Shown: positions 3,898-52,615, counted from the first letter of the stretch. The stretch is DNA of 60,160 bases from Spirochaetales bacterium (GCA_021736255.1 JAIPGG010000006.1:1-60160), one strand, 5' to 3'. The notes: a model not told the origin generated them from the letters alone. A program made the numbers and translations.

Positions 3898-4052
3898 GCC
3901 TGTAGTGGGAGTTTATTACGCGGGAAAGTGGAACCCGTCCTTCTCGTCTCAGTCTTTTATCAAGAGCTTCTAAAGGCAGCTATAGCGGATGTATATCAGG
4001 GCCGGCAGCCGGATCTCTACCGGATAGATGGGCTTTGAACGGGAGAACCGGT

Positions 4053-8224: not shown

Positions 8225-8226
8225 AA

Positions 8227-9326: not shown

Positions 9327-9374
9327 GAGCAGATATGCCCTGACCACGAATGAGCAGGCCTTTCTATGTAGTTA

Positions 9375-10034: not shown

Positions 10035-10107
10035 ACGTTCATCCCTCTTTCAGTCCTCTTTCGGTCCCGAGGATACCCTTCGAGGGACTTCACTGCTGTA
10101 ACAAATG

Positions 10108-12323: not shown

Positions 12324-12347
12324 CCCCGCTCCTTTGCTGTTTACAGT

Positions 12348-17200: not shown

Positions 17201-17465
17201 CTGTCCCCCTCTGTTCATCATGGCAACCCGAGAGAAAAAAGGCAAGAGAATGCTTCGACAGGACAAAGGCCTTCTGTATAAATCAAAGGTTGCAATACCG
17301 GCGCTTTTCGTTTTTACAGGATTTGGCAGGCTTTATTTCCGTATTTTGCAAATATCTACCAAATTTTCTTCATTTTTTTGAATATTTCAGCATTGTTTAA
17401 TGAAGAATCGGCACGTATCATGGAAAAATCAGAGCTGTGTCACCCATATAACCAACCCCTCTGCA

Positions 17466-17494
17466 TTGACAGCAGAAAAAACCGGACATACAAT
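17466..17494 (+). promoter_or_regulatory. Sigma70-type promoter of the peptidase/Dpp operon
   Basis: TTGACA (17466-17471), 17-nt spacer, TACAAT (17489-17494). Confidence 0.7.
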
Positions 17495-17533
17495 TTTATC
17501 CATAATTTTATATATAGCAACAGGAGCTAACGT

Positions 17534-32218: not shown

Positions 32219-32233
32219 CGGCAACAGTATATC

Positions 32234-33496: not shown

Positions 33497-33583
33497 CTGT
33501 CACTCCTTTTTTTGTCGTTATTGATCACGACAGCTCAGGCTGTCTGTGATTCACCTTTAATAAGCGAGATCACCGGGAGACCA

Positions 33584-34636: not shown

Positions 34637-35714
34637 CCCTCCCGAGCTTTCTTAGACTGCGTGCGTTGATATAAACGACGGTTATAAAAACGATCCCCTG
34701 AACAACTGTCTGGGAGAAGGTATCAATACCCATAAGCGTCATTATATTCCGCATTAAACCAATTACAAATACGCCTCCGAGGACTCCTATTATATCGCCC
34801 CGGCCCCCGTTGAGCGTCATTCCACCGATAACAACGGCCGTCACAGCATTAAAGTCATACCCTTCGCCGTTGTAGTACGCACCGACCTTTCCGAGCGAGG
34901 TAATGAAGATACCCGTCAGGGCGGCAGTGAGGGAAGAGATCAAAAAGGCCGTACCGACTACCCGGCTTGCCTTGATTCCGCTGAGCCGGGCCACATCATA
35001 AGAGGACCCGGTTACCTTCAACTGCTGTCCGAACTTTGTTCGCTTCAAAAGGAACTGTGCGGCAATTACCAGTGCAATGAGAATAATAACGGTGATAGAG
35101 ATGCTGCCGAAGATGCGGATCCGGTACAGATTGATAAAGGCATCCGCCAGATGCTCGTTTCCGATGCCGGCCTTGATGTCGGGGTAGATCTGTTTGTTGA
35201 GCCAGACCCAGCGTACCACTCCCTTGGTGACATAGGCCATAGCCAAGGTCCAGATAATCGGGTTTGCCCGAAGTTTACCGACGGCAAAGGCATTAACAAG
35301 TCCCACACCTACACCTACCAGCAAACCGGTAAAGATACTCATGAACATTCCCAGAGGAATGAGTTCGATGGCGATATAACCGGAGAGGGCCATGGTTGTC
35401 GGAATAGAGAGATCGGCAAAGTGGCCCGAATAGGTTACGAAGGCTACACCGACTGCCGCCATCCCGAGCAGCGTTACTGCATCGAGAATATTGAGAAAGT
35501 TTTTTGAATTAAAAAAACTCCCGCCGAAAAGAATAATCCCTACGAGAATAAACAGGATAGCTACAACGTAAACACCGAATCTGTTGATCCAGAGGTTCAA
35601 ACCGGATTGCTTTAACTCCCGGGAAACAGGCGGGGCCGCTGCAGCATTTCCCTGCCCCGGCGGTGAGTTTTGCTGTGCGGGCTGCTGTTGGTTCAGATCA
35701 TCCGGCATTGACAT
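34626..35714 (-). CDS. Sugar ABC permease (RbsC-like)
   Basis: DLS, TKFG, AVVIGG..GGRG; multiple TM segments. Confidence 0.93.
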   Translation of the reverse strand: MSMPDDLNQQQPAQQNSPPGQGNAAAAPPVSRELKQSGLNLWINRFGVYVVAILFILVGIILFGGSFFNSKNFLNILDAVTLLGMAAVGVAFVTYSGHFADLSIPTTMALSGYIAIELIPLGMFMSIFTGLLVGVGVGLVNAFAVGKLRANPIIWTLAMAYVTKGVVRWVWLNKQIYPDIKAGIGNEHLADAFINLYRIRIFGSISITVIILIALVIAAQFLLKRTKFGQQLKVTGSSYDVARLSGIKASRVVGTAFLISSLTAALTGIFITSLGKVGAYYNGEGYDFNAVTAVVIGGMTLNGGRGDIIGVLGGVFVIGLMRNIMTLMGIDTFSQTVVQGIVFITVVYINARSLRKLGRDDA

Positions 35715-37221
35715 ACCTCCCTTCTCCGTTAGCCGCTAACAGGACTGTTTCTTCAGTGGCTTCCCCTCCGGGAATCTCGCCGATCATGTGTCCCTTCCTC
35801 ATCATGACGATTCTGTCCGATATTCCCACGAGCTCGGGAAGATCCGAGGAAACAACAATTACGGCATTGCCTTGGTCGGCCAGTTTTTCTATGGCTTTGT
35901 GAATAGTAACCTTTGCTCCTACATCGACTCCCCGGGTAGGCTCATCGAGAAACAATACGTTAGGCTCTATGGCAAGCCACTTAGCCAAAAGGACCTTCTG
36001 CTGATTTCCACCGGAAAGGTTGCTCATCGTTCGCCCCGGATCGGGAGGATAAATATTCAACTCATTGATAAGAGATTTCATCTTTCCCGCTCCGCGTTTA
36101 CTCGAAAAGACAAAATTCTTTACCAGGCGGGGAATTAAGGCGGAGAGAATATTTTCTCCGACGGTCAGGCGAAGAGCGAGTCCGAAAAGCTTTCTATCTT
36201 CGGTGAGATAGCCCACGTCTTTTTCGAGGGCCTCCGTCATATTCTTGATCCGGATCTGTTTCCCGTCCAGAAAGATTTCTCCCTCATCGATCGCGTCGAC
36301 CCCCGTAATTGCCCGGGCCAGCTCGGTCCGGCCGGCACCTGCAAGGCCGCCTATACCGAGAACCTCGCCTTCGTGAGCGGAGAAGGAAACATTGTGGAAA
36401 AACCCGTATCGGGAAAGATTTTCAACCCGCAGCTTTTCCTTTCCGGGGGTACGTACCCGCTTACTGAACATTTCCTCCATCTTTCTGCCGACCATCATCT
36501 CCACCAGCTCCGAGGTGGTTACATCGCTTACCTTTCGGGTGTCGATGCGTTTTCCGTCCCGCATAACCGTTACCCGGTCGGCAACCTCGAAGACCTCCGG
36601 AAGATGGTGAGATATATAGATAATTGCCAGCCCCTCGTCCCTGAGCTTGTGAATGATACCGAAAAGCAGAGCTACCTCATCCCGGGAAAGAGCAGAGGTA
36701 GGCTCGTCCATAACCAGGATACTGGGCGCATTTCCCAGGGCTTTTGCAATCTCGACCAATTGAGCCTGGTGCTGACTGATTTCTTCTATCTCCAAAAGCG
36801 GATCGAGATCTCCGAGTCCTACTCGCTCGAGAAGTTGTTTGGATTCTTCCACCATCCGTTTTTTATCGAGGAAACCCTTTTTCCGCGGCAAACGGCCTAC
36901 CAGGAGGTTTTCCGCGATGCTGATCGGCAGAGCCTGGGTGAGCTCCTGGTAAATCATTTCGATCCCCTCATCCTTTGCAATGGAGGGTGAATGGAGTTTT
37001 ACCTGCTGTCCACCGATGAAAATTTGTCCGGTATAATCGTTAAAAGATCCGGCAAGCATCTTCATGAGAGTAGATTTTCCGGCACCGTTCTCGCCGACCA
37101 GTGCATGAACCTCACCGGCCTGGACGTCGAAACTTACGGTATCGACTGCTATGGTCCCGGGAAACTGCTTGCTGACGTCCTTCATTTCTATGGCCTTCCC
37201 CAACTGTTCAGCTTCACTCAC
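35698..37221 (-). CDS. Sugar ABC ATPase (RbsA/MglA-like, two domains)
   Basis: GENGAGKST, MDEPTS, LSGGNQQK, DEPTRGVDVGAK. Confidence 0.97.
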   Translation of the reverse strand: MSEAEQLGKAIEMKDVSKQFPGTIAVDTVSFDVQAGEVHALVGENGAGKSTLMKMLAGSFNDYTGQIFIGGQQVKLHSPSIAKDEGIEMIYQELTQALPISIAENLLVGRLPRKKGFLDKKRMVEESKQLLERVGLGDLDPLLEIEEISQHQAQLVEIAKALGNAPSILVMDEPTSALSRDEVALLFGIIHKLRDEGLAIIYISHHLPEVFEVADRVTVMRDGKRIDTRKVSDVTTSELVEMMVGRKMEEMFSKRVRTPGKEKLRVENLSRYGFFHNVSFSAHEGEVLGIGGLAGAGRTELARAITGVDAIDEGEIFLDGKQIRIKNMTEALEKDVGYLTEDRKLFGLALRLTVGENILSALIPRLVKNFVFSSKRGAGKMKSLINELNIYPPDPGRTMSNLSGGNQQKVLLAKWLAIEPNVLFLDEPTRGVDVGAKVTIHKAIEKLADQGNAVIVVSSDLPELVGISDRIVMMRKGHMIGEIPGGEATEETVLLAANGEGRYVNAG

Positions 37222-38638: not shown

Positions 38639-40447
38639 ATGGCTAATCTATCTGACCTCACAGTCCTTCCCCCACAGAACCGACTTCGGAGCAGACTGCC
38701 GAAGGTTGGAATCCGGCCCACTATCGACGGCAGGCGGGGGGTTCGCGATTCTCTGGAAGAGCAAACAATGGCACTTGCCAAAGCGGCGGCCGGTCTAATA
38801 CAAGAAAACCTGCGGCATGCCTGCGGTCTGCCTGTGGAATGCGTTATAGCCGACTCCACCATCGGCGGTGTAGCGGAAGCCGCCGCCTGTGCGGACAAGT
38901 TCTCTCGCGAGGGAGTAGGTGTTTCTCTTACGGTCACTCCCTGCTGGTGCTACGGATCGGAGACCATGGATATGGACCCCAGCACACCGAAAGCCGTCTG
39001 GGGATTCAACGGTACCGAACGGCCGGGGGCAGTTTATCTTTCTGCGGTTCTGGCCGCTCACAGTCAAAAAGGGCTGCCTGCTTTCAGCATCTACGGGCGG
39101 GAGGTCCAGGACGCAGACGACCATTCGATTCCGGAAGACGTACAGGAAAAGATTCTTCGCTTTGTCCGGGGCGGTCTGGCAGTGGCAACCATGCGGGGGG
39201 CCTCCTATCTCTCGATCGGTTCGGTTTCCATGGGAATCGGCGGTTCTATCGTAGACGCGGATTTTTTCCAGAAACACCTCGGAATGAGAAACGAATACGT
39301 CGATATGTCCGAGATAGAACGACGTGTGCGCGAAGGGGTTTACGATCACCAGGAATACGAAAAGGCAATCGCCTGGGTTCGAGAGAACTGTGCAGAGGGT
39401 CCCGACCCCAATCCTCCGGAAAAGCAAAAAAAACGGAAGGAAAAAGATCAAGACTGGGAATACGTAGTCAAGATGACCCTAATTGCCCGGGATCTGATGA
39501 TCGGCAACCCGAAACTTGCCGAGATGGGATTCGAAGAGGAATCCAACGGGCACAACGCCATCGCCGGAGGCTTCCAGGGGCAGCGGCAATGGACCGATTT
39601 TTTACCGAACGGCGATTTCATGGAGACGATGCTCAATACCTCGTTCGACTGGAACGGAATCCGGGAGCCCTTCGTTTTTGCCACCGAGAACGACTCGCTC
39701 AACGGCGTATCCATGCTCTTCGGTCACCTGCTCACCGGCACCGCCCAGATTTTCTCCGACGTGCGGACCTACTGGAGCCCGGAGGCTATTAAACGAGTCA
39801 CCGGGCAGACCGTCACCGGCACAGCGGAAAACGGCCTGATCCATCTGATCAACTCGGGTTCGACCACCCTCGACGGCACCGGCCGTCAAAGCAAAGACGG
39901 CAAACCCGTAATGAAACCCTACTGGGAAATAACTCCCCAGGATGCGCAGAACTGCCTCGAATCCGCTGTCTTTCCGGCGGCAAACCGAGACTATTTTCGC
40001 GGAGGCGGCTATTCGACCAATTTCCTCACCCTCGGCGGAATGCCGGTTACCATGACCCGGATCAACCTGATCGACGGCCTCGGACCGGTGATTCAGATTG
40101 CCGAGGGGTGGACCGTTACCCTCGAAGAGGATGTACACGAGAAACTCGACAGTCGGACCGACCCGACTTGGCCGACCACCTGGTTCGCCCCGCGCCTTAC
40201 CGGCAGCGGCCCCTTCCGGGATGTCTATTCGGTCATGGCAAACTGGGGGGCCAACCACGGGGCCATCAGTTACGGCCACATAGGCGCAGACATGATCACC
40301 CTTGCTTCCATGCTCAGAATCCCGGTAAATATGCATAATATCGAGGCCGAAAAAATCTACCGACCGAGCACCTGGAGCGCATTCGGCATGGATCTTGAAG
40401 GTTCGGATTACCGAGCCTGCGAAAAATTGGGACCACTGTATAAATAA
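38639..40447 (+). CDS. fucI: L-fucose (D-arabinose) isomerase
   Basis: [56 protein letters not shown]. Confidence 0.97.
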
Positions 40448-40507: not shown

Positions 40508-41770
40508 TTACTTTATGTCCGGAATATCATGCTCCCCCAGGTCGAGAGGATAGTTTCCATACTCCCGGACCAGCTTCATCACATAATCAAAGCGCTCTCC
40601 CGAGACCGAGTTGGGCACCGAATGGTCCGACATGAAGATCATACCGCCGCCCTTGGCCGCATTGAGTTTCCGGAGGACAGTATTCTTGAGCTGGTCCATC
40701 GGGAGATCGGCCCATTCCATTACGTCCATGTTTCCGCACAATGCGATCTTATGGTCGTATTCACGGCGGAGTTCGATGACATCCAGACCGGATTTCGCCT
40801 CCAGCGGGTTGTATCCGTCGATACCGAGATCGATCATATCGGAGAAAATTTCACGGGAATCGCCGCAGCCGTGATAGATCACGGGAATATTATTGCTGTG
40901 ACAAACATCAACAATATCGGCTACCACCGGTTTGAAGTATTTCCGCCAGTATTCCGGACTAAACATCATTCCGTTCTTGTAAGCCACGTCGCCCCAGATC
41001 ACCATGCCGTCCAGCATGCCGTTCGCCGCTTTTATCTGTCCCTCGGTTATCCCTACCAGGAAATCCCCTACCCGGCGCAGAAATTTTCCGAGCTTCTCCG
41101 GATACAAGCCGATCCACAAAAGCATATTTTCCGATCCGATGATTCTCCACCCCTGTTCCTGGGCCTCGCAGACGCTGCCGTAAACCGGAATATCGGGATA
41201 GAGCGCCTTGACCTGATCCACCCAGGGCGGAAGATCTCGGGCAAAACCATCACCTACCCCTCCGATTTGGTTGTCGCCGCCTGAATAATACCTCCTGTCG
41301 TCGAAGGGATCGTCGAACTCGAACGCCTCCATCTTCTCGATAGTATTGGTGTCGAAATGCACGAAGGCCGGCATCGGATAGGTAAACTTCTTCCGGACAT
41401 GCGCCTCGTAACCGGTTTTGACCAGCACTTCGTCGTCGGTCTGCTTCAGGATCTCGAAGTCTTTGATGTGGGGATCCATGTTCGGAAGGGTAACAATGAA
41501 GTCGAGGTCATAGTATTCATAGATGTCCGTGCCCTCCGGCAGGCCGAGGTCCTCTCTCCACCGCTGCAGGAATTGGCCCCAGAAAAAATCGCTAACCGGG
41601 ACGCGGTCCGGCTCTTCATGGCGGAGGGCCTTGTTCACCCGTTCGAGTTTCTGTTTGGCCTTTTCTGTTCTTTCGGGGATTATGTCGGTACTCCCCTGTT
41701 TGTGTTTGCTGCGAAGAGATTTAGAAATAAACATGCCTTCATCGGTAAAAAAGGGATTGTCGCTAGCCAT
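40508..41770 (-). CDS. URO-D/MtaA-CmuA-like (beta/alpha)8 Zn protein, copy 1
   Basis: EEPDRVP, WGDVA, MFSPE, YHGCG, NPLE, GGGMIF.SDHSV. Confidence 0.85.
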   Translation of the reverse strand: MASDNPFFTDEGMFISKSLRSKHKQGSTDIIPERTEKAKQKLERVNKALRHEEPDRVPVSDFFWGQFLQRWREDLGLPEGTDIYEYYDLDFIVTLPNMDPHIKDFEILKQTDDEVLVKTGYEAHVRKKFTYPMPAFVHFDTNTIEKMEAFEFDDPFDDRRYYSGGDNQIGGVGDGFARDLPPWVDQVKALYPDIPVYGSVCEAQEQGWRIIGSENMLLWIGLYPEKLGKFLRRVGDFLVGITEGQIKAANGMLDGMVIWGDVAYKNGMMFSPEYWRKYFKPVVADIVDVCHSNNIPVIYHGCGDSREIFSDMIDLGIDGYNPLEAKSGLDVIELRREYDHKIALCGNMDVMEWADLPMDQLKNTVLRKLNAAKGGGMIFMSDHSVPNSVSGERFDYVMKLVREYGNYPLDLGEHDIPDIK

Positions 41771-41966
41771 TCGGCAGACCTCCTGAATTGTTCCTCATGG
41801 ATTATTCGGTATTCGTATTAACATAATCCTACCATGAACACGGAAAACTACAATAAAATTTTACTGGAATTTTCTATGTTTTACTAAATTTTACTTTACA
41901 TGGCAGATGCCTGTTGGTACTCTGGAGGAAATCTCTTGTTTTCTGCAGATAATCCGGGAGAGACGC

Positions 41967-43007
41967 ATGAACCAACGACCAACCCTTCGCGAGGTAGCTT
42001 CAAAAGCGGGGGTTTCTCTTACAACAGCATCCCTGGTAATGAACGGCAAAGGGGCCATCTCCGATGATGTACGAACTCTCGTCCGCGAGGCAGCCGCCGC
42101 TCTCGGCTATCATAAAAGCAGCGGCCCCTTTCTCCGTCAGAATGAAAAAAAACGGGCGGGAATTCTCGTTCATACCGATAACCGCTGGGCCTATCTCTGG
42201 CACTTCATTCAGCCGGCGCTCGAGGCCATAGACCGTATTTTGCGCCGCTCAGGCTACCTCACGATCATGCTCCCGGTATACCATGACGACAATCCCAGGG
42301 AGGTGATCGAGGCTGTCCGTCGATCGGGATGCTCTAGTCTTTTTTCCATGTATTACGGCAGCACCGAGGTCTTCTCTTACCTCGAACAGAGAAATATCCC
42401 GGTAGTGACCGCCTTCAACAATGATTTTCAGGACCGGTTTTTCTCTGTATGCGTCGATGATTTTGCCGGAAGCTACGAAGGCACCCTCCATTTGATAGAG
42501 CGGGGTCATCGAAACATTCTCTACTTTGAGTTCGATATACCCGTGCTGCCACTGGTCGTCAGCGACCGGTATATCGGTTTTCAAAAGGCAATGAACGAGC
42601 GGGGCCTCGAAGCAGGATCCGACAGGCGAATTCGTGTGGACATCTCAAATTTTGATGAAATTTTCGAACGGGTCAGACGATGGTTCGGAAAGGAACGGCC
42701 GGCCCGGGCCAGACCGACGGCAATCTTCGCCATGGACGACTACCTGGCCGCCTATCTCCACACCGCCCTCGGAAAACTCGGTCTGAAAGTCCCCCGGGAT
42801 GTTTCGATTATCGCTCCGGGAGATGTTCTGGACTACCGGCATCCCTTCACACCGATGATCAGCACCATGCGGATCAACACCTCCCTGATAGGCAAAACAG
42901 CCGCAGAGATGATGATCGAACGGCTGGAAAATAACCCCGGGGAAATACAGGTACTGAAAATCAAACAGCAGCTGGTGGAACGGGGATCGTGCCGAAGCCT
43001 GGCATAA
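41967..43007 (+). CDS. LacI-family regulator (divergent subtype)
   Basis: PTLREVASKAGVSLTTAS, VDDFAG, PTAIFA.DD, VPRDVSI, LVERGSC. Confidence 0.93.
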   Translation: MNQRPTLREVASKAGVSLTTASLVMNGKGAISDDVRTLVREAAAALGYHKSSGPFLRQNEKKRAGILVHTDNRWAYLWHFIQPALEAIDRILRRSGYLTIMLPVYHDDNPREVIEAVRRSGCSSLFSMYYGSTEVFSYLEQRNIPVVTAFNNDFQDRFFSVCVDDFAGSYEGTLHLIERGHRNILYFEFDIPVLPLVVSDRYIGFQKAMNERGLEAGSDRRIRVDISNFDEIFERVRRWFGKERPARARPTAIFAMDDYLAAYLHTALGKLGLKVPRDVSIIAPGDVLDYRHPFTPMISTMRINTSLIGKTAAEMMIERLENNPGEIQVLKIKQQLVERGSCRSLA

Positions 43008-43027: not shown

Positions 43028-43135
43028 CCAATAGACCCAGCGGTACCAATAGACCCAGCGGTACCAATAGACCCAGCGGTACCAATAGACCCAGCGGTAC
43101 CAATAGACCCAGCGGTACCAATACGCTCAGCGGTA
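43028..43135. repeat. 18-bp tandem repeat (VNTR): 5 perfect units plus 1 degenerate unit
   Basis: (CCAATAGACCCAGCGGTA)x5 at 43028-43117, then CCAATACGCTCAGCGGTA at 43118-43135. Confidence 0.95.
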
Positions 43136-44410
43136 CTGGGCTACCGTCTCGTACATCGCAACGATATTCTCCGGCGGAACATCGGGCATGATGTTGTGCA
43201 CGGTGTTGAACACAAAACCGCCGCCGGGCATAAAAACATCGAGCCGCTTCTTTACATGGTCCCGCACCTGTTCAGCGGTACCGGAGTTGAGGACCTCCCG
43301 GGTATCCGCCCCGCCGCCCCAGAAACAGATATCGCCTCCGAATTCCTTCTTGAGACGCTCGGGTTCCATATCGACGGTATTGGTCTGCACCGGATTGAGC
43401 ACGTCGTAGCCGGCCTCCACCAGGTCGGGGATGAGCTTGTAAACCGAACCACAGGAATGCAGAAAGGTTTTCATTCCGCTGTTTTTGTGGACATATTCGC
43501 AGAGCCTGGTGTGGCGAGGTTTGAAGATCTTCCGATAGATCTCGGGAGCCATGAACGGACCGGTGTCCAGCCCCAAATCATCACCGAATCGAAGAACATC
43601 GGCAACATCTCCCACTGTCTCGCAGACCTTCTCGAGACCTGCAAGGTGGACCTCCATCAGGGCATCCAAGAGCCCCTCGACCTTGTCCGGTTCGGTGTAG
43701 ATGTCCATCAGAAAATTGTCCATCCGGCGCAGAAAGGTGCCCCATTCGAAGAGGTTCGATCCGGCAACGATCATCAGCGCCCGGTCGCTGTTTTCTTTTA
43801 GTTTGATCGCTGCATTCCGAAGCTGTTCCCAATAGTCATCTTCTCCTGCATGATCCCAGGGACTGTGCACCATAGCCTGCCAGAGCACCTTGTTCATGGC
43901 ATCCGGCAAATCGTCATAGGAATCAGGATAGCCGTCGATATAAGGGAAATAGGTCTGATCGAAAAAGGTTGCCCCTTTCGGTTTTTTTGCAATCGGAGTG
44001 CCGTCGCCGGCCTTGGCAATAAGCGCCGTTCCCTCCTGTTCGGGATGAAACCAGGCCGGATAATAGGCTTGACTGCCGTCGGACAGCTCGACAGGATACC
44101 AGTCGCTTTCCCTGTTGTTGAACATACGCCCTATATCCAGCACGTCCACGCCGAATCGATCTATCGCCCAGTCTTCCGGCTGAGCGAGTTCCTGAACTAC
44201 ATCATAGACGCGGGTTCGGCTCTCTTCGACACCAAGATAATCGGCAAGCCTGGTGTAGGCAATGGCCGAAATGCCGGAACTCGGCGTGGCACCCAGGTCG
44301 AGAGGCACCCGGTCCGGTTCCCGGTGTTCTATCGCCGATAGGACCCGTTCCCGGGAGGTCATAGCGCCGGCGGCACCGCTGGTGTCGGAATTGCTTGATT
44401 GCTCAGTCAA
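43127..44410 (-). CDS. URO-D/MtaA-CmuA-like Zn protein, copy 2
   Basis: MTSRERV..HREPDRVPLDLG, FGDDLG, FLHSCG, LNPVQ, FWGG, GGGFVF..VHNI, VPPEN. Confidence 0.88.
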   Translation of the reverse strand: MTEQSSNSDTSGAAGAMTSRERVLSAIEHREPDRVPLDLGATPSSGISAIAYTRLADYLGVEESRTRVYDVVQELAQPEDWAIDRFGVDVLDIGRMFNNRESDWYPVELSDGSQAYYPAWFHPEQEGTALIAKAGDGTPIAKKPKGATFFDQTYFPYIDGYPDSYDDLPDAMNKVLWQAMVHSPWDHAGEDDYWEQLRNAAIKLKENSDRALMIVAGSNLFEWGTFLRRMDNFLMDIYTEPDKVEGLLDALMEVHLAGLEKVCETVGDVADVLRFGDDLGLDTGPFMAPEIYRKIFKPRHTRLCEYVHKNSGMKTFLHSCGSVYKLIPDLVEAGYDVLNPVQTNTVDMEPERLKKEFGGDICFWGGGADTREVLNSGTAEQVRDHVKKRLDVFMPGGGFVFNTVHNIMPDVPPENIVAMYETVAQYR

Positions 44411-44732: not shown

Positions 44733-44881
44733 GCCGTCCTCCTTTATCATATTTTAGCAATATTTTACCACGGACACCAAGACAGTCAAGGTTTTTTCGA
44801 ATAATCTCCTATATTCAGCGGTTTTTTCTTGTATTTTTGGTTAATTATGATAAAGTAATGGTTAAATATGGAGCGGATGAG

Positions 44882-45943
44882 GTGAGCGATAACAACGAAA
44901 CCACCCTGGAAGACGTAGCTCGGCTGGCCGGAGTATCCAACGCAACCGCATCATTAGCTCTTGCCGGCAAAGGACGCATCTCTGCTGTCGTCCGGGATCG
45001 GGTAATCGACTCCGCCCGGAGTCTCAATTACCGCCGCGGTCTCGAGAAGATCCAGAAACTCAGGCCCGTCACCGGAAAACTTGCCCTTCTGCTCCAAATC
45101 GACCCCCGGTGGACCTACGCCTGGCCTCTGGTGCAGCCGATTATTGATGCGGTGGATACCGGGGTAAAAAGCAGGGGCTACACGCTGGTCATGGTTCCGA
45201 TCCGAAACGACATGAAACCGGACCGGGTTATCGAAGACGTGAGATCCGTGGAAGCTCAAGGGGTTTTTGCGCCGATCACCGACATACCCGGGCTGTTCGA
45301 CCGGATCCGAGCCGAGAATCTTCCCTTGACATTGATTTTGGACAACAGCCGGCAGGAAGACATCTCCACCGTGGGAATCGACGATTTCCGCGGAGCCTAT
45401 GAGGGAACCAGGTATCTGATTGGTCTCGGTCACCGGGACTTCCTCTATGTAACTACCGGCAGGCCGAATATTCCCCTGATGGCAAGTGATCGCTACGTAG
45501 GATTTCTCAAGGCGATCCATGAACTGGGCCTCGTGCACGATCAGGACCGGGACATCATCTTTCCCATAGAATCCTACAACCTTCTCAAGGATAAACTCGA
45601 AAGGGCGATGAAGACCGGGCGCAGGCCAACCGGTATATTCGCCCTCGATGATGCAGTAGCTCTGCGAACCATTCGCAGCCTGGGAGAACTCGGCTTCTCA
45701 GTTCCCGAAGACGTGTCGGTCATTTCGGTTGGGGACCTGCTCGATTATCGGCAGGACTTTGTTCCTCCGATCACTACCATGCAGATCGACAGCGGCATGA
45801 TGGGAACCCTGGCGGCGGACATGATGCTTCGAAGACTCGATAACCGCGAAGAGGTTGAAAGCGCCCCGGCGGTTTTAAAAACACGCCTCAATCTGCAGGA
45901 ACGGGGCAGCTGCCGTGAAATCACAGAGGAGAAATCGCTATGA
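44882..45943 (+). CDS. LacI-family regulator, paralog of 41967-43007
   Basis: TTLEDVARLAGVSNATAS, RWTYAW (versus RWAYLW), SDRY.GF.KA, GD.LDYR..F.P, ERGSCR. Start uncertain. Confidence 0.92.
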   Translation: MSDNNETTLEDVARLAGVSNATASLALAGKGRISAVVRDRVIDSARSLNYRRGLEKIQKLRPVTGKLALLLQIDPRWTYAWPLVQPIIDAVDTGVKSRGYTLVMVPIRNDMKPDRVIEDVRSVEAQGVFAPITDIPGLFDRIRAENLPLTLILDNSRQEDISTVGIDDFRGAYEGTRYLIGLGHRDFLYVTTGRPNIPLMASDRYVGFLKAIHELGLVHDQDRDIIFPIESYNLLKDKLERAMKTGRRPTGIFALDDAVALRTIRSLGELGFSVPEDVSVISVGDLLDYRQDFVPPITTMQIDSGMMGTLAADMMLRRLDNREEVESAPAVLKTRLNLQERGSCREITEEKSL

Positions 45944-46992
45944 CAAGCAAAGAACGAGTACTCAATTCTTTCGAGGGAAAAATTCCCGATCGGGTACCCC
46001 GCTGGTTCGGAACCTCGCCTGAATTCCTGGAAAAGGCTGAGCGGACTACCGGCCTCGATGAGGAGGGTCTGCGGAAAAAGGTCGGCGATGATTTTCGAAG
46101 AGTATTCGCCGAGTACCGCGGCCCTGAGCACCAACTCTCTGAAGGAGCAACCTGGAGAAGCCCCTTCGGCATCGAACGGGAGGGGCTCGGCTACGGTATG
46201 CCGAAAACCCCGCCGCCGCTTGCTGGAGTACGAACGATTGAAGAGGTAGAGGCCTTCAACTGGCCTGACCCGAACTGGATGGATGTAACGGGTATCCCGG
46301 AACAAGCAGCACCATACCGGGACGAGTACGCAATCCTCGGCGGCGATTGGTCCCCCTATTGGCACGACGTGATCGACCTGACAGGACACGTCGAGCTCTA
46401 CTACATGATATACGACGCACCGGAGGTACTCGAACGCATCTTCGAACGGGTAACCGATTTCTACCAGCAGGTGAGCCGGAACATCTTCGACTACGCAGGG
46501 AACGACATCGACATTTTCTTTATAGGCAACGATTTCGGCGGCCAGACCGGCCCGCTCATGAGCCCCGAACAGTTTCGGAGGTTTCTCCTGCCGTCCATGA
46601 AACGCCTTATCGACCTGGGCCACGGGTACGGCAAACCGGTTATGCTGCACTGCTGCGGAGGCTACCGGGAGTTGATCCCGGATCTGATAGAAGCAGGGAT
46701 CGACGGCCTGCAGGCCCTGCAGCCGGATGCTGCAGGTATGGAGCCGGCGGAACTCAAAAAGGAATTCGGATCGAAAATCGTGCTGAACGGATCGATCGAT
46801 TCCAAACGGGTACTGATCAATGGGCCGAGCCCCGATTTCGTACGAGAGGAAACACGAAAGGTCCTCGAAATCATGCAGCCCGGAGGACGCTACATCGCTT
46901 CGGCAAGTCACGATGCCATTCTGGAAGAAACCCCGGTGGAGAATGTGCTGGCTATGTTCGAGAGCATCGAAGAATTCGGCGCATACAACTAG
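45940..46992 (+). CDS. URO-D/MtaA-CmuA-like Zn protein, copy 3
   Basis: MTSKERV..PDRVP, GNDFG.Q..MSPE, LHCCG, LQP, GGRYI..SHD, TPVEN. Confidence 0.88.
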   Translation: MTSKERVLNSFEGKIPDRVPRWFGTSPEFLEKAERTTGLDEEGLRKKVGDDFRRVFAEYRGPEHQLSEGATWRSPFGIEREGLGYGMPKTPPPLAGVRTIEEVEAFNWPDPNWMDVTGIPEQAAPYRDEYAILGGDWSPYWHDVIDLTGHVELYYMIYDAPEVLERIFERVTDFYQQVSRNIFDYAGNDIDIFFIGNDFGGQTGPLMSPEQFRRFLLPSMKRLIDLGHGYGKPVMLHCCGGYRELIPDLIEAGIDGLQALQPDAAGMEPAELKKEFGSKIVLNGSIDSKRVLINGPSPDFVREETRKVLEIMQPGGRYIASASHDAILEETPVENVLAMFESIEEFGAYN

Positions 46993-47022
46993 TTTTCTAA
47001 GCATTTTCACTATTTTTTTCCG

Positions 47023-47051
47023 TTGCGCACCCATCATCCTCCTGGTATCCT
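47023..47051 (+). promoter_or_regulatory. Candidate promoter of the glycyl radical enzyme operon
   Basis: TTGCGC (47023-47028), 17-nt spacer, TATCCT (47046-47051) with an extended TG. AGGAGG RBS downstream. Confidence 0.5.
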
Positions 47052-47075: not shown

Positions 47076-49385
47076 ATGATTATGGATTCAAAGAAAACCA
47101 ATAGAGAAACCATCGGGGCCCAGGCAGTACCGGGAATCTCCCCGAACAGCCGAGTGCAGGCACTGATCGACCGCAGAGACAAACTCGCCCGGGAACATAA
47201 GCGTGATTTGTACGTAGACAATCCCGAATTCCTTGTCTATCACTGGTCAGGGGAAGCCGAAGCCTTCAGTCCCGCCACCGGCGAACATGCCGCAGCCGAG
47301 GACAAACGCATCAACCTCGGGGATCACAACTGCCGTGTGGACATCGGCATTCCCTTTCCCTACACAGAGGAGATGCCCTCCAAAAAGAACGGCCACAGCA
47401 ACGATCCCGAAAACTTCGGCGCCGACTACGCCTTTTTTATGGATCACAGTCCGGCGGAGATCCATCCCCACGAACAGATTGTCGGAGAGTTTCACTGGCA
47501 GCTCGACGAGGCCCGCCGATTCCGCTACCCCGAAAAGCAGCGGGAACTCGGCCGGCAGGCCAGGCAGTTGGGAGCCGGGGGTATCAGCTTCAACCACACC
47601 ACCCCGGATTTGAGTATCGGCCTCTCTCTGGGATGGAAAGGCCTCCTGGAAAAAATTCGCAGCAATCGTTCCAAATACGAAGAATACGGAAACCAGCAGA
47701 GCGTTCAATACCTAAACGGGGCTGAACAGGTCGCCCTTTCCATATCCCGGTTTATCGCCCGGCATGCAGAACGAGCCGAAGAGCTTTCTGCAGCCGAAAG
47801 TGACCCCGAACTCAAAGAGAATTACCGGCAGGTTGCCCAAACATGCCGGGCCATCAGCCAGGATGCACCGAAAACCCTTCAGCAGGCTGTGCAGTGGATC
47901 CAGTTTTACCTCCTTGCCGACCGGATAATAGGCCACGGCAACGGATACGGCAGGCTCGATCAACTGCTCATCGACTTCTACCGAAACGATCTCGAAGAGG
48001 GAAGGATCACTCGTGAACAGGCCCGCGACTACATTGCAGAGCTCTACCTCAAATACGGGGGAAACTACTTCTCCTTCGGAGGCAGAAACCGGGAACTCGA
48101 GGATGCTACCAACGAGCTGAGCTGGATCGGCCTCGAGGCATACGATATGACCGGCGGCTACAACCACCTCGGAGTCATGTGGCACCCGGATATGGACCCG
48201 GACTTTTTCGAATATGCCTGCGACGTTGTGGGACGGCACGGAGCGGGAACTCCCACTCTGGTAAACTACGACGTTATGCGCTACAGCCAGCTCCGCTCGG
48301 GTGTAAGCGAGGACGATGCCTGGAATATCTCCTACAGCGGATGCCAGTGGTACTGCACGGTAGGCAACGAGTACAACGACCAGGACCTCAATTCCCTCGT
48401 TCTCGTCCAGCCGATGCAGCGGGCCATGAAGCGTGCAGCTGGCGAAGGCAGCAAAACCTTCGACGATTTCTGGCAGATCTACGATCAGGAGGTCCAAAAG
48501 ACCGCCGACATCCTGCGGGATTTCAAGAACAAGACCTACGAATGGCAAGCCCGGATATGGCCGGAGATCGTTACTTCTTTCTGCATGCACGGTCCCATGG
48601 ATAAGGGAAAGGACGTCACCGACACCCGGGCAGTAAACAACAACTACACCTCGGTCAACGTGTTGGGTGTTCCCAATGTCTCCGATTCGATGTATGCCAT
48701 CAAGAAACTTGTGTACGAGGAGGGCCTCTGCAGCATGTCCGAACTCCTCGAGGCAGTCGAGAATGACTGGGAAGGGCGAGAACCCCTTCGCCGGCGGTTT
48801 TTGAACCTGCCCAAGTTCGGCAACGACATCGATGAACCGGATACCATGGGCATCAGGGTATCCGAACACATCCGGGAAACCCTCGAGAGCCGCCGCAACA
48901 TAAAGGGATTCCATTTCCGCCCCTCGCTCTTCCAGTACATGGGGCACACCTATGCCGGTCCAATGCTGGGGGCCACCCCCGACGGGAGAAAGGCCGCCGA
49001 ACCCCTCGCCCACGGCATGAATCCAATGCACGGACGCAACACGGAGGGAATAGTAGCAACCGCCAACTCATTTACCAAACTCGACTTTCGCAAATACCAG
49101 GGCGGCTCGTTTCAGATCGAGCTCGAGCCCTCCTTTTTTCAGCGGGACGAGAGGCGCGGTCCTGTGGTAGCTATGTTCGCCAAATCGTTCTTCGAAAAGG
49201 GCGGTGTGCAAATCAACCTGAACGTCATCGACATAGATACCCTCAAGGATGCAATGGCCAATCCGGAAAAGGATGAATATCAGGACATCGTAGTCAAAGT
49301 AACCGGGTACTCGGCACACTTTGTTGTCATGGACCGGCAATTCCAGAGCGAGTTCATTCAGCGGGTCAATTACGAGGACCTCTAG
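47076..49385 (+). CDS. Glycyl radical enzyme (PFL-like superfamily), atypical active site
   Basis: GRLDQ, PKFGND, ATPDGR, QINLNV; Cys loop SGCQW (Cys423) and Gly loop VKVTGYS (Gly744). Confidence 0.92.
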   Translation: MIMDSKKTNRETIGAQAVPGISPNSRVQALIDRRDKLAREHKRDLYVDNPEFLVYHWSGEAEAFSPATGEHAAAEDKRINLGDHNCRVDIGIPFPYTEEMPSKKNGHSNDPENFGADYAFFMDHSPAEIHPHEQIVGEFHWQLDEARRFRYPEKQRELGRQARQLGAGGISFNHTTPDLSIGLSLGWKGLLEKIRSNRSKYEEYGNQQSVQYLNGAEQVALSISRFIARHAERAEELSAAESDPELKENYRQVAQTCRAISQDAPKTLQQAVQWIQFYLLADRIIGHGNGYGRLDQLLIDFYRNDLEEGRITREQARDYIAELYLKYGGNYFSFGGRNRELEDATNELSWIGLEAYDMTGGYNHLGVMWHPDMDPDFFEYACDVVGRHGAGTPTLVNYDVMRYSQLRSGVSEDDAWNISYSGCQWYCTVGNEYNDQDLNSLVLVQPMQRAMKRAAGEGSKTFDDFWQIYDQEVQKTADILRDFKNKTYEWQARIWPEIVTSFCMHGPMDKGKDVTDTRAVNNNYTSVNVLGVPNVSDSMYAIKKLVYEEGLCSMSELLEAVENDWEGREPLRRRFLNLPKFGNDIDEPDTMGIRVSEHIRETLESRRNIKGFHFRPSLFQYMGHTYAGPMLGATPDGRKAAEPLAHGMNPMHGRNTEGIVATANSFTKLDFRKYQGGSFQIELEPSFFQRDERRGPVVAMFAKSFFEKGGVQINLNVIDIDTLKDAMANPEKDEYQDIVVKVTGYSAHFVVMDRQFQSEFIQRVNYEDL

Positions 49386-49399
49386 GCCGTGCTGTGAAC

Positions 49400-50356
49400 A
49401 TGAAGGCACGTATTTTCGACATCCACCGGCTCTCCACCCACGACGGCCCCGGCTTCCGGACGGCCGTCTTTTTTAAAGGCTGCAGTCTGCGCTGCCGGTG
49501 GTGCCACAACCCCGAGAGTTTCAACCCCGGTCCGGAGGTGTGGTGGTATTCAAACAAATGTATCGGCTGCCTCGATTGTGTTCGCTCCTGCCCGGAAGAC
49601 GCCCTCAGTGCTGAAGAGGAGGGAATCCGCATTGACCGGAATAAATGCACAGGCTGCGGAATCTGCGCCTCGGTCTGCCCCTCCGGCGCCATGCGTATGG
49701 TCGGAAACGAATGGAAACTAGACGACTTGATCGAACTCATAGAAAAGGACAGGCAATACTTCGACAATTCCGGCGGAGGTATCACCCTCTCCGGAGGAGA
49801 ACCGCTTCTGCAAAGCGGCTTCAGTCTTTCCCTGCTCGATGCAGCGGCCGCAAGGGGTATCTCCACTGCCGTCGACACCTGCGGAGCAGTACCTCCCGAA
49901 ACCATCGAGCAGAGCCTGCCCCTCACCGACTATCTTTTCTATGACCTCAAACTCATAGACCCGGAGGAACACCGCAGCTTCACCGGAGCGGGAAACGACA
50001 GGATCCTCGAAAACCTCCGCTTTGCAGCCGACTATGCACGAAACAACCGGAAGCCGGAAATCTGGGTCAGGACCCCCCTCATCCCCGGCGCTACTGCAGG
50101 AGAGGAAAACCTTCAGGCCGTCGGCGACTATCTTGCCGATATCGGATCTGATGTCATTTCCCGCTGGGAATTGCCGGCCTTCAACCGGCTCGCCTCGGAC
50201 AAATATTCCCGCCTCGGCAGGGAATGGGAATATGCCGATACCCCGATACTCACCGATTCCGAGGCCGAAAATCTGGTAAATGCTGCGAAAAGCTCACGAT
50301 TTCCCGATAAGCTGATCGTTCTGACTGGAATTACCGACTCAAATGCGTCAAAATAG
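49400..50356 (+). CDS. Glycyl-radical enzyme activating protein with a 2x[4Fe-4S] insert
   Basis: HDGPGFRT.VFFKGCSLRCRWCHNPES, CIGCLDCVRSCP, CTGCGICASVCP, GGITLSGGEP. Confidence 0.95.
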   Translation: MKARIFDIHRLSTHDGPGFRTAVFFKGCSLRCRWCHNPESFNPGPEVWWYSNKCIGCLDCVRSCPEDALSAEEEGIRIDRNKCTGCGICASVCPSGAMRMVGNEWKLDDLIELIEKDRQYFDNSGGGITLSGGEPLLQSGFSLSLLDAAAARGISTAVDTCGAVPPETIEQSLPLTDYLFYDLKLIDPEEHRSFTGAGNDRILENLRFAADYARNNRKPEIWVRTPLIPGATAGEENLQAVGDYLADIGSDVISRWELPAFNRLASDKYSRLGREWEYADTPILTDSEAENLVNAAKSSRFPDKLIVLTGITDSNASK

Positions 50357-50364
50357 ATACAGAT

Positions 50365-50991
50365 ATGTATATTTCATACAGAAAGAACCAGACCGGCCAT
50401 GCGATCGACTTCATCTCCCATGTGCTTCGGGCAGGGTATTATCTGGAGGAGCTCTACCGTCCCGGCAGCCTTACCGGCAAGGGAAAGACCATGGACAGAT
50501 GCAACGAAGCGATTCTCGAAGCCAAAAAACTCGATCCCCCTGCCGAAACCGAACAGTTCTACAGTTTCTTGCTCGCGGGCTTTCAGGCGATTCTTCTGAC
50601 CCTTCTCGATGAACCCAAAATGGCCAAACAGGCCATTCGCGTTTTCCCCCAGCGGCATTTCAAATCCCATGAACTCGGCCGGCCGTCTTTACGACCCGTG
50701 CTGTATCATATTCCCAAAATCATGGGGCTCGCCTTGGAACATGAAAACGAGGCCTTTTTTCAGTTTCTGTGCCGAACCTGTCTGGTAATCGAACCCATGT
50801 CGTTTCTCGAGAACAAGATCGATATGACCCTAACCGACCTGATTCGCAGCAGAAAATCCCCCGAGTTCACGGCAGGATGGCAGTTCCTCCTGCATCATGC
50901 CGAAGGCCTTGCCCCGGAGTTTCCTGTATTTCGGGAATATGTTCAGGGACTACGCAGTTCCGAGTCCGACCTTTTGTGCCTGACGGTGTAA
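50365..50991 (+). CDS. Hypothetical protein in the GRE operon
   Basis: 208-aa ORF 8 nt after the activase, on the same strand, with no competing annotated gene. Confidence 0.7.
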   Translation: MYISYRKNQTGHAIDFISHVLRAGYYLEELYRPGSLTGKGKTMDRCNEAILEAKKLDPPAETEQFYSFLLAGFQAILLTLLDEPKMAKQAIRVFPQRHFKSHELGRPSLRPVLYHIPKIMGLALEHENEAFFQFLCRTCLVIEPMSFLENKIDMTLTDLIRSRKSPEFTAGWQFLLHHAEGLAPEFPVFREYVQGLRSSESDLLCLTV

Positions 50992-51015: not shown

Positions 51016-51453
51016 ATGGACTTTTCCTACCCGGTTGCAGAACGCGCAGTAAAGCGCTGGAAAAGCGAACGGCTCGAAGAAATCGAACCGCAGCATTTTC
51101 TCTTCCATTACCAGGGAAGCACCTGCAGCAACGGCGGAGTACCCTTTATCGCCGATTTTCACGTGATTGTCGATAAAAGCCCAACACTTCGGATTCAAAG
51201 CGCATGGATCGAGATGCCGGAAGAAGAGGAAGAAAACTGGCGGGAAATGTGCTCATTCCAGAGCCGGGGCGAGAAGTTTCTCCGGGAGATTACGAAAGAA
51301 GCAGCCTTCGCCGGGAAAACGGTCGAAGAGGTTCTCAACAACCCTGGAGAAATCAATTATGCCGGGTGCCTCTGCTTTCCCGCCATGGTCAATCAGAAGT
51401 GGCAAATGGTTCTTTCCACCGTCCATTATGCCTGCGCCGTCAGTGGAGCATAA
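51016..51453 (+). CDS. Small Cys-rich hypothetical protein (possible Fe-S accessory subunit)
   Basis: 145 aa, GAGG RBS; GSTCSNGG, EMCSF, AGCLCF. Confidence 0.75.
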   Translation: MDFSYPVAERAVKRWKSERLEEIEPQHFLFHYQGSTCSNGGVPFIADFHVIVDKSPTLRIQSAWIEMPEEEEENWREMCSFQSRGEKFLREITKEAAFAGKTVEEVLNNPGEINYAGCLCFPAMVNQKWQMVLSTVHYACAVSGA

Positions 51454-52615
51454 CCTGCCCGCCGGTCACCGGCACTGCCTGACCGGTTTCGTAGACCTGA
51501 TCAACGACATATTCGAGGGCCTTATAGACATCCGGACCGGTACACCCGCGCTTCATCGGGACCTTTTGTTCATAAAAATGCTTTACATCCTCTATTGATT
51601 TTGCCCCCGGGACTTTACCGGCCCGCAGGTACTGGACAAACAGCCCCCGCTCAGGGTCCGACCAGAGGGGCCCCTCGAAAAAGTTACCCGGACAGATGGA
51701 ATTGACCTTGATGTTGTCGCTTATCAGTTCGAGTGCAAAACTCTGAGTCAAACCGATCCCGCCGAACTTCCCGCCGGCATAGGCTCCGTTTTTATTGGAC
51801 CCGGAAAGACCGGACTTGGAATTGATTTGGATAATATCGCTGAACATCGGACCGCTGCCCGCTGCCTCGGCAGCCTTGTTCTGCAGGGCCATTACCGGGG
51901 AAACATGCTTCGTACCGAGAAAATAGCCGAAATAGTTTACCCGCGACACGAACTCGAAATCGGAATACTTCAGTTCTTTTACGCTTCCCGCTTTGAGGAC
52001 CCCGGCGTTGCTCAGATACAGATCCACCCCGCCGGTTCGCTTCACCACCTCTTCCGCCATAGCCGCCACAGATTCTTCTTTGGAAACATCGACCTGCAGA
52101 GCATAGGCGGCCTTCTGTGAACCCCTTCCGGTGTACTGCTCGTTGATACTCTGTGCCATCTTTTCGGCGCCCTCGAGATTGAGATCGACGATTACCACAA
52201 CAGCACCACGAGCGGCAAGCTGCTGTACCAGAGAGGCCCCGAAACCCTGGGCCCCGCCGGTTACCACCGCAGCCTTCCCGGCCACCGGCGAATTGATTGA
52301 AACACCTTCCGGATAATAAACCCGATACTGTCCCACTCCTTCGACTTCGATCCGTACCGGTCCGGAAGCAGAGGCTTCCTCTCCCTTTTCGGGAACAACC
52401 TCGGCTCCGCCTGCAGCTTTCCACGCCGCGGTCAATTCCTCGACGAGCTTGTCTTCGTCCAATTCCGAGAACCCGCGGTCTTTGATCTTTAGAACGGCTT
52501 CCCCTGAATCGGGTGCTGTATCATCCTCTTCGGAAACCATTTGGACCAGGGGAGCGGTCTTTCCGTTATACATCAATCCCCGCAGAAGGGGGGCTGCCTT
52601 ATGCTGTACATCCAT
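51440..52615 (-). CDS. SDR oxidoreductase, sorbitol-6-phosphate dehydrogenase (SrlD)-like, with an extra N-terminal segment
   Basis: TGGAQGFG, NAG, IIQINSKSG..GS..N..YAGGKFGG.GLTQS.ALEL, TGQ...VTGGQVM. Confidence 0.88.
   Translation of the reverse strand: MDVQHKAAPLLRGLMYNGKTAPLVQMVSEEDDTAPDSGEAVLKIKDRGFSELDEDKLVEELTAAWKAAGGAEVVPEKGEEASASGPVRIEVEGVGQYRVYYPEGVSINSPVAGKAAVVTGGAQGFGASLVQQLAARGAVVVIVDLNLEGAEKMAQSINEQYTGRGSQKAAYALQVDVSKEESVAAMAEEVVKRTGGVDLYLSNAGVLKAGSVKELKYSDFEFVSRVNYFGYFLGTKHVSPVMALQNKAAEAAGSGPMFSDIIQINSKSGLSGSNKNGAYAGGKFGGIGLTQSFALELISDNIKVNSICPGNFFEGPLWSDPERGLFVQYLRAGKVPGAKSIEDVKHFYEQKVPMKRGCTGPDVYKALEYVVDQVYETGQAVPVTGGQVMLH

Follow-up and report, generated by a model that had tools for sequence, protein, structure and literature searches.

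Which reaction can a glycyl radical enzyme (GRE) catalyse once the glutamate of its catalytic loop has become a tryptophan, and what is its substrate? The question is raised by a gene of a Spirochaetales bacterium, located in a DNA stretch of 60,160 nt (GCA_021736255.1 JAIPGG010000006.1:1-60160, hereafter the window) and followed, 8 nt past its stop codon, by the gene of its activase:

47076..49385, + strand: GRE, 769 aa (open frame of 769 codons, Pfam matches, both radical loops)
49394..50356, + strand: GRE-activating radical S-adenosylmethionine enzyme, 320 aa (TIGR02494, cluster motifs)

An earlier note on this DNA had read the catalytic loop as SGCQWYC, with Cys423 and Cys427, and the radical loop as VKVTGYS, with Gly744. 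A script run on the 769-codon open frame confirmed both and numbered them S421-G-C423-Q-W425-Y-C427 and V740-K-V-T-G744-Y-S. The protein scores above the gathering score of both PF02901, the PFL-like domain (300.3 bits, E 4.5e-89, residues 173-627), and PF01228, the glycine radical domain (72.8 bits, E 4e-20). In a pairwise HMMER alignment with glycerol dehydratase 1r8w, C423 falls on the catalytic Cys433 and W425 on Glu435, so that Trp indeed occupies the Glu position, as had been proposed. G744 aligns with the Gly of RVAGYS, with Lys instead of Arg, and H174, invariant in the family of the window GRE, aligns with His164, the acid that protonates the leaving hydroxyl in glycerol dehydratase according to a June 2026 GRE review. 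An AlphaFold2 (AF2) model built from a 33-sequence alignment (pLDDT 88.0, pTM 0.91) retrieved only GRE structures with Foldseek, at 16-24% identity and TM-scores of about 0.72-0.81, with propanediol and glycerol dehydratases on top. Among solved structures, the closest by sequence is glycerol dehydratase 1r8w (E 4.7e-62), followed by PflD 8yjo (E 1.9e-59).

The activase scores 307.4 bits with TIGR02494 (cut-off 174.35) and 182.7 bits with TIGR04003, below its cut-off of 496.45. It carries a CX3CX2C motif at residue 30, GGE at 134 and two CX2CX2CX3C motifs at 56 and 85, the last two forming a two-cluster ferredoxin-like insert; the ferredoxin insert named in the earlier note is real. Fold domains, Cys, Gly and a dedicated activase being all present, these sequence features assign the window protein to the GRE superfamily; everything required for storing a radical on Gly744 and transferring it to Cys423 is present in the sequence and conserved.

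Its place within the superfamily is less usual, as the window GRE reaches no curated family cut-off below superfamily level. It scores 310.7 bits with TIGR01774 (PFL2/glycerol dehydratase subfamily, cut-off 678.2), 234.5 with the HypD model (1100), 182.8 with CutC (1050), 211.9 with HpsG (1000), 107.3 with TIGR01255 (pyruvate formate-lyase, PFL; 994.2) and, among decarboxylase and X-succinate synthase models, 154.4 with NF033715 (1150) and 177 with NF033718 (1100). Decarboxylation, one of the options listed in the earlier note, has nothing to support it. The same scores bear on whether the enzyme could be a PFL-like C-C lyase, splitting a keto sugar or keto acid with two cysteines. PFL chemistry uses two Cys, and the Cys loop of the window GRE holds two invariant cysteines, but these are four residues apart instead of adjacent, TIGR01255 stays far below its cut-off, the window's genome encodes a separate canonical PFL, and no CoA-handling genes are found near the GRE; we consider such a lyase very unlikely. 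Loops and scores together place the window GRE outside the eliminases and isomerases with a C-x-E loop (Glu two residues past the catalytic Cys), the formate lyases, the decarboxylases and the X-succinate synthases.

When 1.84 billion cluster representatives were searched with HMMER, 5324 matched; the nearest share 52, 49, 42 and 39% identity, and the next ones form a continuum at about 30%. From the 150 best-scoring representatives we aligned the 137 with at least 600 aa and built a tree (FastTree, LG+gamma). The loops of these 137 are C-x-E in 95, C-x-W in 26 and other in 16, and all 26 C-x-W representatives group together in a single clade, which has a support of 1.0 and includes none of the other sequences. 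Since the tree holds only the best scorers against this query, the clade size is a lower bound and the clade limits are not fixed. Three branches can be distinguished: (i) the window family and its kin, with GC[QFYGP]W[YF][CS]; (ii) a sister branch with GCFWYV, for which a scan of metagenome contigs gave one locus of 3.1 kb, too short for context; and (iii) a branch with GC[NHQ]Wxx. In an NCBIfam scan none of 23 clade representatives reaches a curated cut-off: four match TIGR01774 at E<=1e-100 with 348-374 bits, below its cut-off, and the other 19 have no match at that threshold. None of 58 near-relative representatives reaches an equivalog cut-off either.

The catalytic Cys (423) is present in all 26 C-x-W and all 95 C-x-E representatives, and the two groups compare as follows at other positions of the window GRE:

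Position 425: Trp in 26/26 C-x-W; Glu in 95/95 C-x-E
Position 437: Asp in 26/26 C-x-W; Asp in 10 and Glu in 21 of the 95 C-x-E
Position 497: Glu in 26/26 C-x-W; Glu in 3/95 C-x-E
Position 187: Trp in 24/26 C-x-W; Trp in 1/95 C-x-E
Position 743: Thr in 23/26 C-x-W; Thr in 10/95 C-x-E
Position 682: Glu/Asp in 20/26 C-x-W; Lys/Arg in 62/95 C-x-E
Position 174: His in 23/26 C-x-W; His in 91/95 C-x-E

Because Asp437 and Glu497 are invariant in the clade while the loop Glu is lost, the alignment indicates an active site that is rebuilt and not broken, with other carboxylates fixed. As His174 is kept next to carboxylates of the clade's own (Asp437, Glu497, Glu/Asp at 682), a dehydratase or isomerase with a rearranged acid/base set appears possible, and the different chemistry put forward in the earlier note is one option among others. 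The Lys in the Gly loop had been presented in the earlier note as a departure from the normal motif; the residue is there, but as a class marker it fails, given that Arg is kept in 23 of the 26 C-x-W representatives, Lys being confined to the window family and a neighbour with a GCQWFC loop, and that Lys also occurs in 4 of the 95 C-x-E representatives. Judging from the alignment, this is a minor, recurrent swap and is not diagnostic.

In the sections consulted of the June 2026 review, the characterised eliminases and isomerases all keep C-x-E, in agreement with what the earlier note had said of eliminases; entire GRE clades are said there to lack validation, and no Trp-loop enzyme of this kind is named. 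A search of full-text literature, with subscription journals and supplements outside its coverage, found no paper on a C-x-W enzyme. By its sequences the C-x-W clade is deep and uncharacterised, its catalytic Glu always replaced by Trp. Since all characterised GRE eliminases and isomerases rely on the Glu of C-x-E, the clade must place its base elsewhere or run a different radical chemistry. The separate clade, the missing Glu and the absence of any equivalog-level match bear out the earlier view that the enzyme is neither a PFL nor a standard dehydratase, and we are highly confident that it is a functional GRE of a new clade.

One might object that a GRE without the canonical Glu, and with Lys for Arg, is a decaying or non-catalytic paralogue. 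Close relatives of the window GRE allowed us to evaluate this. A word-indexed search scored 7999 candidates and yielded 577 relatives, the 119 best of which (the window's own protein excluded) are 61-69% identical and bear generic names only; the ESM Atlas likewise gave only generic "pyruvate formate lyase" clusters. Among 33 aligned homologues (61-68% identity), S421, G422, C423, Q424, W425 and C427 of the Cys loop and V740, K741, V742, T743, G744, Y745 and S746 of the Gly loop are invariant. We also gathered 80 genome loci and called and clustered their open reading frames (ORFs). The family GRE is carried by 76 loci, the window included, and these 76 are the basis of all neighbour counts below. 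Within the cluster of 77 GRE ORFs, the Cys loop reads GCQWYC in 69/73 and GCQWFC in 4/73 (leaving out three N-terminally truncated ORFs and an unrelated second GRE of one locus, L060), and Lys is found in the Gly loop of 75/75 (leaving out the same second GRE and one ORF with no readable Gly loop). With both loops strictly conserved among relatives, in the 33 homologues and in 73/73 loops, the motifs have not decayed by the very check that the earlier note had put forward. The open frame, the occurrence of these motifs across at least ten phyla, the dedicated activase in 67/76 loci and the confident AF2 model all speak against a degenerate paralogue, which we regard as extremely improbable.

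Copies 60-68% identical to the window GRE are found in Bacteroidota, Spirochaetota, Bacillota, Verrucomicrobiota, Acidobacteriota, Chloroflexota, Planctomycetota, Bifidobacteriaceae and a Photobacterium, and among the carriers are Parabacteroides, Blautia and Faecalicatena from the human gut, Treponema from the termite gut, and bacteria of marine and peat habitats. A branch-iii profile, with which the window GRE itself scores 8e-134, matched the window's own genome and, at E<=1e-120, none of 300 other genomes of its phylum. This patchy distribution in its own phylum, combined with copies of such identity in distant groups, points to horizontal spread of a small module.

What does this module act on? 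The strongest clue, missed in the earlier note, is a link to L-fucose uptake and fucosidases in the gene neighbourhoods. The following neighbours were counted over the 76 loci:

Activase: 67/76
AraC regulator: 38/76
Major facilitator superfamily (MFS) permease, FucP: 28/76
GH29 alpha-L-fucosidase: 25/76
LacI regulator: 14/76
Uroporphyrinogen decarboxylase (URO-D)-like protein: 13/76
CUT2 monosaccharide ABC transporter ATPase: 11/76
GH95: 8/76
PhyH oxygenase: 7/76
RhaT-like permease: 6/76
RhaM-type mutarotase: 5/76
Sulfatase: 5/76
FucI: 3/76

With 368.5 and 381.3 bits, the MFS neighbour exceeds the NCBI curated cut-off for FucP (TIGR00885, 280.4). Counting GH29, GH95, FucP and FucI as fucose markers, one or more of them is present in 37/76 loci and in 25/46 loci of at least 12 kb, and same-strand runs with gaps of at most 250 bases join the GRE to FucP in 19/76, to GH29 in 14/76 and to AraC in 16/76. 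The arrangement can be very compact. In Parabacteroides segnis an AraC gene stands beside a GH29, GRE, activase, FucP and GH95 island, flanked by an integrase and glycosyltransferases on one side and by dnaJ/grpE on the other, and in Diplocloster and Treponema sp. TIM-1 the order AraC, substrate-binding protein, ATPase, permease, GRE, activase is set amid unrelated genes. Further neighbours are GH106, GH35, GH97, GH130, GH141, SusD, and SSF and GPH transporters. Because the neighbourhoods, with their FucP, fucosidases and ABC transporters, point to a role in L-fucose use, we consider it likely that the GRE is tied to the use of fucose or another 6-deoxyhexose; for its acting on the free sugar we would give even chances.

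Several loci add observations of a different kind. In marine Bacteroidota (L022, L024, L057, L050, L031 and L002) a PhyH-type Fe(II)/2-oxoglutarate oxygenase lies just past the activase, sharing a gene run with the oxygen-sensitive GRE. A xylose-isomerase-like barrel is often present as well, and the oxygenase may handle the same substrate under aerobic conditions. An Oceanispirochaeta metagenome-assembled genome (MAG; L012) carries, at 1988-4996 and a few kb from the GRE, an MtmB-like gene (monomethylamine methyltransferase family) and a 508-aa gene, with a sulfatase, a RhaM-type mutarotase and a URO-D-like gene also nearby. In a Verrucomicrobiota MAG (L041, one locus only) a gene of the fumarylacetoacetate-hydrolase family (3842-4741) is located directly 3' of the GRE and activase; to this family belongs the diketo-deoxy-fuconate hydrolase of the non-phosphorylative fucose pathway.

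The C-x-W clade as a whole looks sugar-linked. A search of a 401-genome sample of the Blautia hominis phylum with the branch-iii profile found four genomes at E<=1e-120. In one of them (G694) a branch-iii GCHWYG enzyme and its activase have a GH130 phosphorylase, a ROK protein, an Opp-type ABC system and an MFS transporter nearby. In Anaerotignum (L059), a 52%-identical member lies 3' of a levoglucosan-dehydrogenase-like oxidoreductase (330.7 bits, below the cut-off of 650), a xylose-isomerase-like barrel and a GPH transporter. A Phycisphaerales MAG (L060, 5514-14337) has the Trp-loop GRE beside a canonical GCVE GRE (TIGR01774, 766.8 bits, above the cut-off), with a single activase between the two, behind an SSF transporter and a RhaM-type mutarotase. 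Finally, G583, another of the four genomes found with the branch-iii profile, has a GRE with a GCQWFC loop, 47% identical to the window GRE, in the following operon:

L092 (G583:C20), 7714-17860: AraC, RhaM-type mutarotase, GRE, activase, aldose 1-epimerase (GalM), SftI-like isomerase, split transketolase, binding protein

Its isomerase is distantly like the sulfoquinovose isomerase SftI (NF048012, 113.7 bits, far below the cut-off of 700), and by analogy with the sulfo-transketolase pathway for sulfoquinovose the operon looks as if it served to degrade a 6-deoxy sugar via transketolase. In both L060 and L092 the GRE is flanked by mutarotases, which suggests that its substrate is one particular anomer of a reducing sugar in free form.

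The L092 operon also brings up a radical epimerase. Here the thiyl radical of Cys423 would take a ring hydrogen from L-fucose and Cys427 would return one to the other face; with no Glu base there would be no elimination, and an epimer such as 6-deoxy-L-gulose would enter a route via isomerase and transketolase. The C3/C4 configuration of 6-deoxy-L-sugars is the wrong one for transketolase, and the mutarotases, SftI-like isomerase and split transketolase of L092 would fit such a route. Cys427, moreover, is invariant in the family (33 homologues, 73/73 loops) and lies two residues past Trp425 on a common predicted strand, 425-428, of the AF2 model. Across the clade, however, Cys is found at 427 in just 7/26 representatives, the transketolase context comes from this single locus, with no isomerase or transketolase conserved in the 76 loci, and no GRE epimerase is known in the consulted sections of the June 2026 review. 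We therefore take epimerisation to be unlikely.

The reading that we favour, by a narrow lean, is a sugar-acting GRE whose substrate is L-fucose in its free form or a closely similar 6-deoxy or L-galacto sugar, and a mechanism can be proposed for it. GH29 and GH95 fucosidases would free the substrate, which would be taken up via FucP or a monosaccharide ABC transporter. The activase would generate the radical on Gly744, giving the thiyl radical of Cys423, which would abstract a ring hydrogen from a pyranose stacked on Trp425. Going by the alignment, Trp425 takes the position of the Glu that binds the substrate hydroxyl in all known eliminases and isomerases, where an indole would be suited to such stacking. 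His174 could protonate the leaving oxygen, as the leaving-group acid does in glycerol dehydratase, and Asp437, Glu497 or Glu682 could serve as base in place of the missing Glu. The substrate radical would lose or shift a C-O bond, by dehydration or by a ring-opening isomerisation as in PflD/YbiW, and Cys423 would give the hydrogen back. On chemical reasoning a base-free variant can also be drawn, with abstraction at C5 or C1 followed by ring C-O scission; as this would need no base, the Glu could have been lost. The candidate reactions are C-O cleavage, ring-opening isomerisation and two-Cys epimerisation. That the step is C-O cleavage or isomerisation, and not epimerisation or C-C cleavage, is a proposal that we make with low confidence.

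Several observations weigh against the favoured reading. No fucose marker is seen in 39/76 loci, many of them short contigs, including 21/46 of at least 12 kb, and no downstream catabolic enzyme is conserved beside the GRE in the 76 loci. In the window the direct neighbours of the GRE are LacI and URO-D-like genes, not FucP or a fucosidase, and Photobacterium sagamiensis has the GRE with no FucI match and with different GRE neighbours (an aldo-keto reductase, PfkB and an XylE-like protein). On the structural side, Trp425, Asp437, Glu497 and Cys427 are put in the pocket by alignment, and the counterpart of Asp447 of glycerol dehydratase is D435 in the pairwise HMMER alignment and D437 in the PflD and MAFFT alignments. 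The latter two agree in setting Asp437 on the Asp of the PflD H-D pair, and on their account D435 was set aside as the match of Asp447, with some ambiguity left. Furthermore, FucI is encoded elsewhere in 4/5 isolate genomes with the GRE, and FucO exceeds its cut-off in 2/5. Because FucI is already present elsewhere in those four, the GRE is not needed for the textbook fucose pathway and could act after it. The FucA profile was not informative, as no genome exceeded its cut-off and Bacteroides thetaiotaomicron also had no match at 1e-20, indicating a model that is too specific. In the genome from which the window comes (82% complete), FucI and one canonical PFL are encoded besides the Trp-loop GRE. 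In all, the GRE probably does not replace the textbook pathway.

The GRE could in that case be a variant diol dehydratase that follows the classical pathway and acts on a C3 compound derived from fucose, either L-lactaldehyde or 1,2-propanediol. The FucI and FucO counts are in line with this, as are the conserved His174 and the dehydratases that head the Foldseek matches; known GRE propanediol dehydratases are fucose-inducible. The June 2026 review links the microcompartment class GRM5 to fucose and rhamnose, but it also has C-x-E retained by all six C-O eliminases, and this motif is absent in the window GRE, whose identity to them is only 21-24%. Moreover, genes for a microcompartment shell, for aldehyde dehydrogenase or for other handling of C3 compounds are not conserved near the GRE; FucP, ABC transporters and mutarotases beside it fit a free-sugar substrate better; and the canonical GCVE GRE that stands beside the Trp-loop GRE in L060 could fill the C3 role itself. 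Action on a C3 product thus seems rather improbable to us.

The following further genes and ORFs of the window were described:

29086-30531, + strand: rhamnulokinase-like FGGY kinase (TIGR02627, 469.4 bits, below cut-off 527.95)
30491-32224, - strand: AraC regulator with periplasmic-binding domain
32294-37221, - strand: CUT2-type monosaccharide ABC transporter
38639..40447, + strand: L-fucose isomerase FucI (TIGR01089, 1081.6 bits, cut-off 850; NF008220, 1095.6 bits)
40508-41770, - strand: URO-D-like gene, one of three paralogues
41907-43007, + strand: LacI gene, divergent, between two minus-strand URO-D-like genes
43127-44410, - strand: URO-D-like gene, paralogue
44837..45943, + strand: LacI-family regulator (LacI helix-turn-helix and Peripla_BP_3)
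45940..46992, + strand: URO-D/MtaA-like protein, 350 aa, next gene on the 5' side of the GRE; overlaps the LacI stop at its start
45745-47037, - strand: ORF of 430 aa overlapping the URO-D-like gene; no family match
50365..50991, + strand: orf208, starting 8 nt past the activase stop; no family match
51016..51453, + strand: orf145, with several Cys, 24 nt past orf208; no family match
51440-52615, - strand: short-chain dehydrogenase/reductase ORF (best match sorbitol-6-phosphate dehydrogenase, 233.5 bits, below cut-off 307)

The presence of FucI identifies this part of the window as a fucose or 6-deoxyhexose utilisation region. The apparent operon order is LacI, URO-D-like gene, GRE and activase, with LacI as first gene; a scan for promoters and terminators gave results at chance level. 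Neither orf208 nor orf145 has a Pfam or NCBIfam match or a homologue in the other loci (tblastn, E<=1e-3), and a conserved small Fe-S subunit was thus not found. Both were rejected as general GRE subunits on this ground, their membership of the GRE system is doubtful, and they could be genes restricted to this lineage or even spurious ORFs. The short-chain dehydrogenase ORF, which overlaps the end of orf145 with its 3' end, has about 110 residues ahead of its dehydrogenase domain; translation probably begins further downstream along the gene.

Three URO-D/MtaA-like paralogues are found within 6.5 kb, with the divergent LacI genes (41907-43007 and 44837-45943) between them. In the paralogue next to the GRE, an H-C-C-G stretch lines up with the H-x-C of the methylcobalamin:coenzyme M methyltransferase 4ay7 (MtaA), and the window's URO-D-like genes possibly encode a sugar-modifying or demethylating enzyme. 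A literature search on URO-D with fucose found nothing. These genes raise the question of whether the GRE could cleave an ether, one of the options listed in the earlier note, for example a methyl ether of methylated fucose or rhamnose, together with the URO-D/MtaA-like proteins. Their position directly upstream of the window GRE and presence in 13/76 loci, their pairing with RhaT-like permeases in Bacteroidota, for instance in Prolixibacteraceae, and the resemblance to 4ay7 with H-x-C kept would agree with this, and the PhyH-type oxygenase, 3' of the activase in five same-strand runs, might be an aerobic counterpart. PflD/YbiW show, according to the review, that GREs can break ring ethers. 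On the other hand, 63/76 loci have no URO-D-like gene, no corrinoid protein was seen among the window genes, and radical beta-elimination of methanol would not give back fucose. We judge ether cleavage to be quite improbable.

In summary, the window GRE may act on a free 6-deoxy sugar. The wider idea, that C-x-W enzymes are a new GRE functional class on free unphosphorylated sugars and provide a radical L-fucose route in anaerobes, is possible, though on the doubtful side. If it were true, the chemistry could be two-cysteine epimerisation or base-free ring-opening to a deoxy-ketose, neither of which has a precedent in the superfamily. Anaerobes draw heavily on fucose as a nutrient, which they obtain from mucus, milk sugars, plant walls and algal fucoidan, and a second, radical route would alter models of fucose flux and products. 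C-x-W enzymes break the one motif common to all sugar- and alcohol-cleaving GREs, and the case is testable, as cultured carriers, gut bacteria among them, exist and the system consists of two genes.

Comparison with known systems helps to place the enzyme. With the glycerol dehydratase of Clostridium butyricum (1r8w) and the propanediol dehydratase of Roseburia inulinivorans (5i2a/5i2g) it shares the ten-stranded GRE fold (TM-score 0.76-0.78), the catalytic Cys, the radical Gly, the His164 equivalent (His174) and an activase with ferredoxin insert; propanediol dehydratase likewise has a part in fucose metabolism, as proposed for the window GRE. It differs from both by its 21-24% identity, by Trp in place of the essential Glu, by the 310.7 bits against a cut-off of 678.2, by the N-terminal 170 residues or so (the Pfam match starts at residue 173) and by having no microcompartment or C3 genes nearby. 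PFL belongs to the same superfamily and resembles it in the Gly radical domain and in carrying two cysteines on the Cys loop. These form an adjacent Cys-Cys pair in PFL, whereas in the window GRE a Gly precedes C423 and the second Cys follows at +4, and the activase is a long one with ferredoxin insert. PflD/YbiW (8yjo, 8id0, 8id7), which open the ring of 1,5-anhydrohexitol-6-phosphate, are second-best by sequence (E 1.9e-59). They keep C-V-E and bind sugar phosphates, whereas the window family has Trp, neighbouring permeases for unphosphorylated sugar and no conserved aldolase partner. PflD and YbiW are described in the June 2026 review as GREs acting on sugars, in which a ring C-O bond is broken with no net elimination, and the Asp of their H-D pair aligns with Asp437 of the window GRE.

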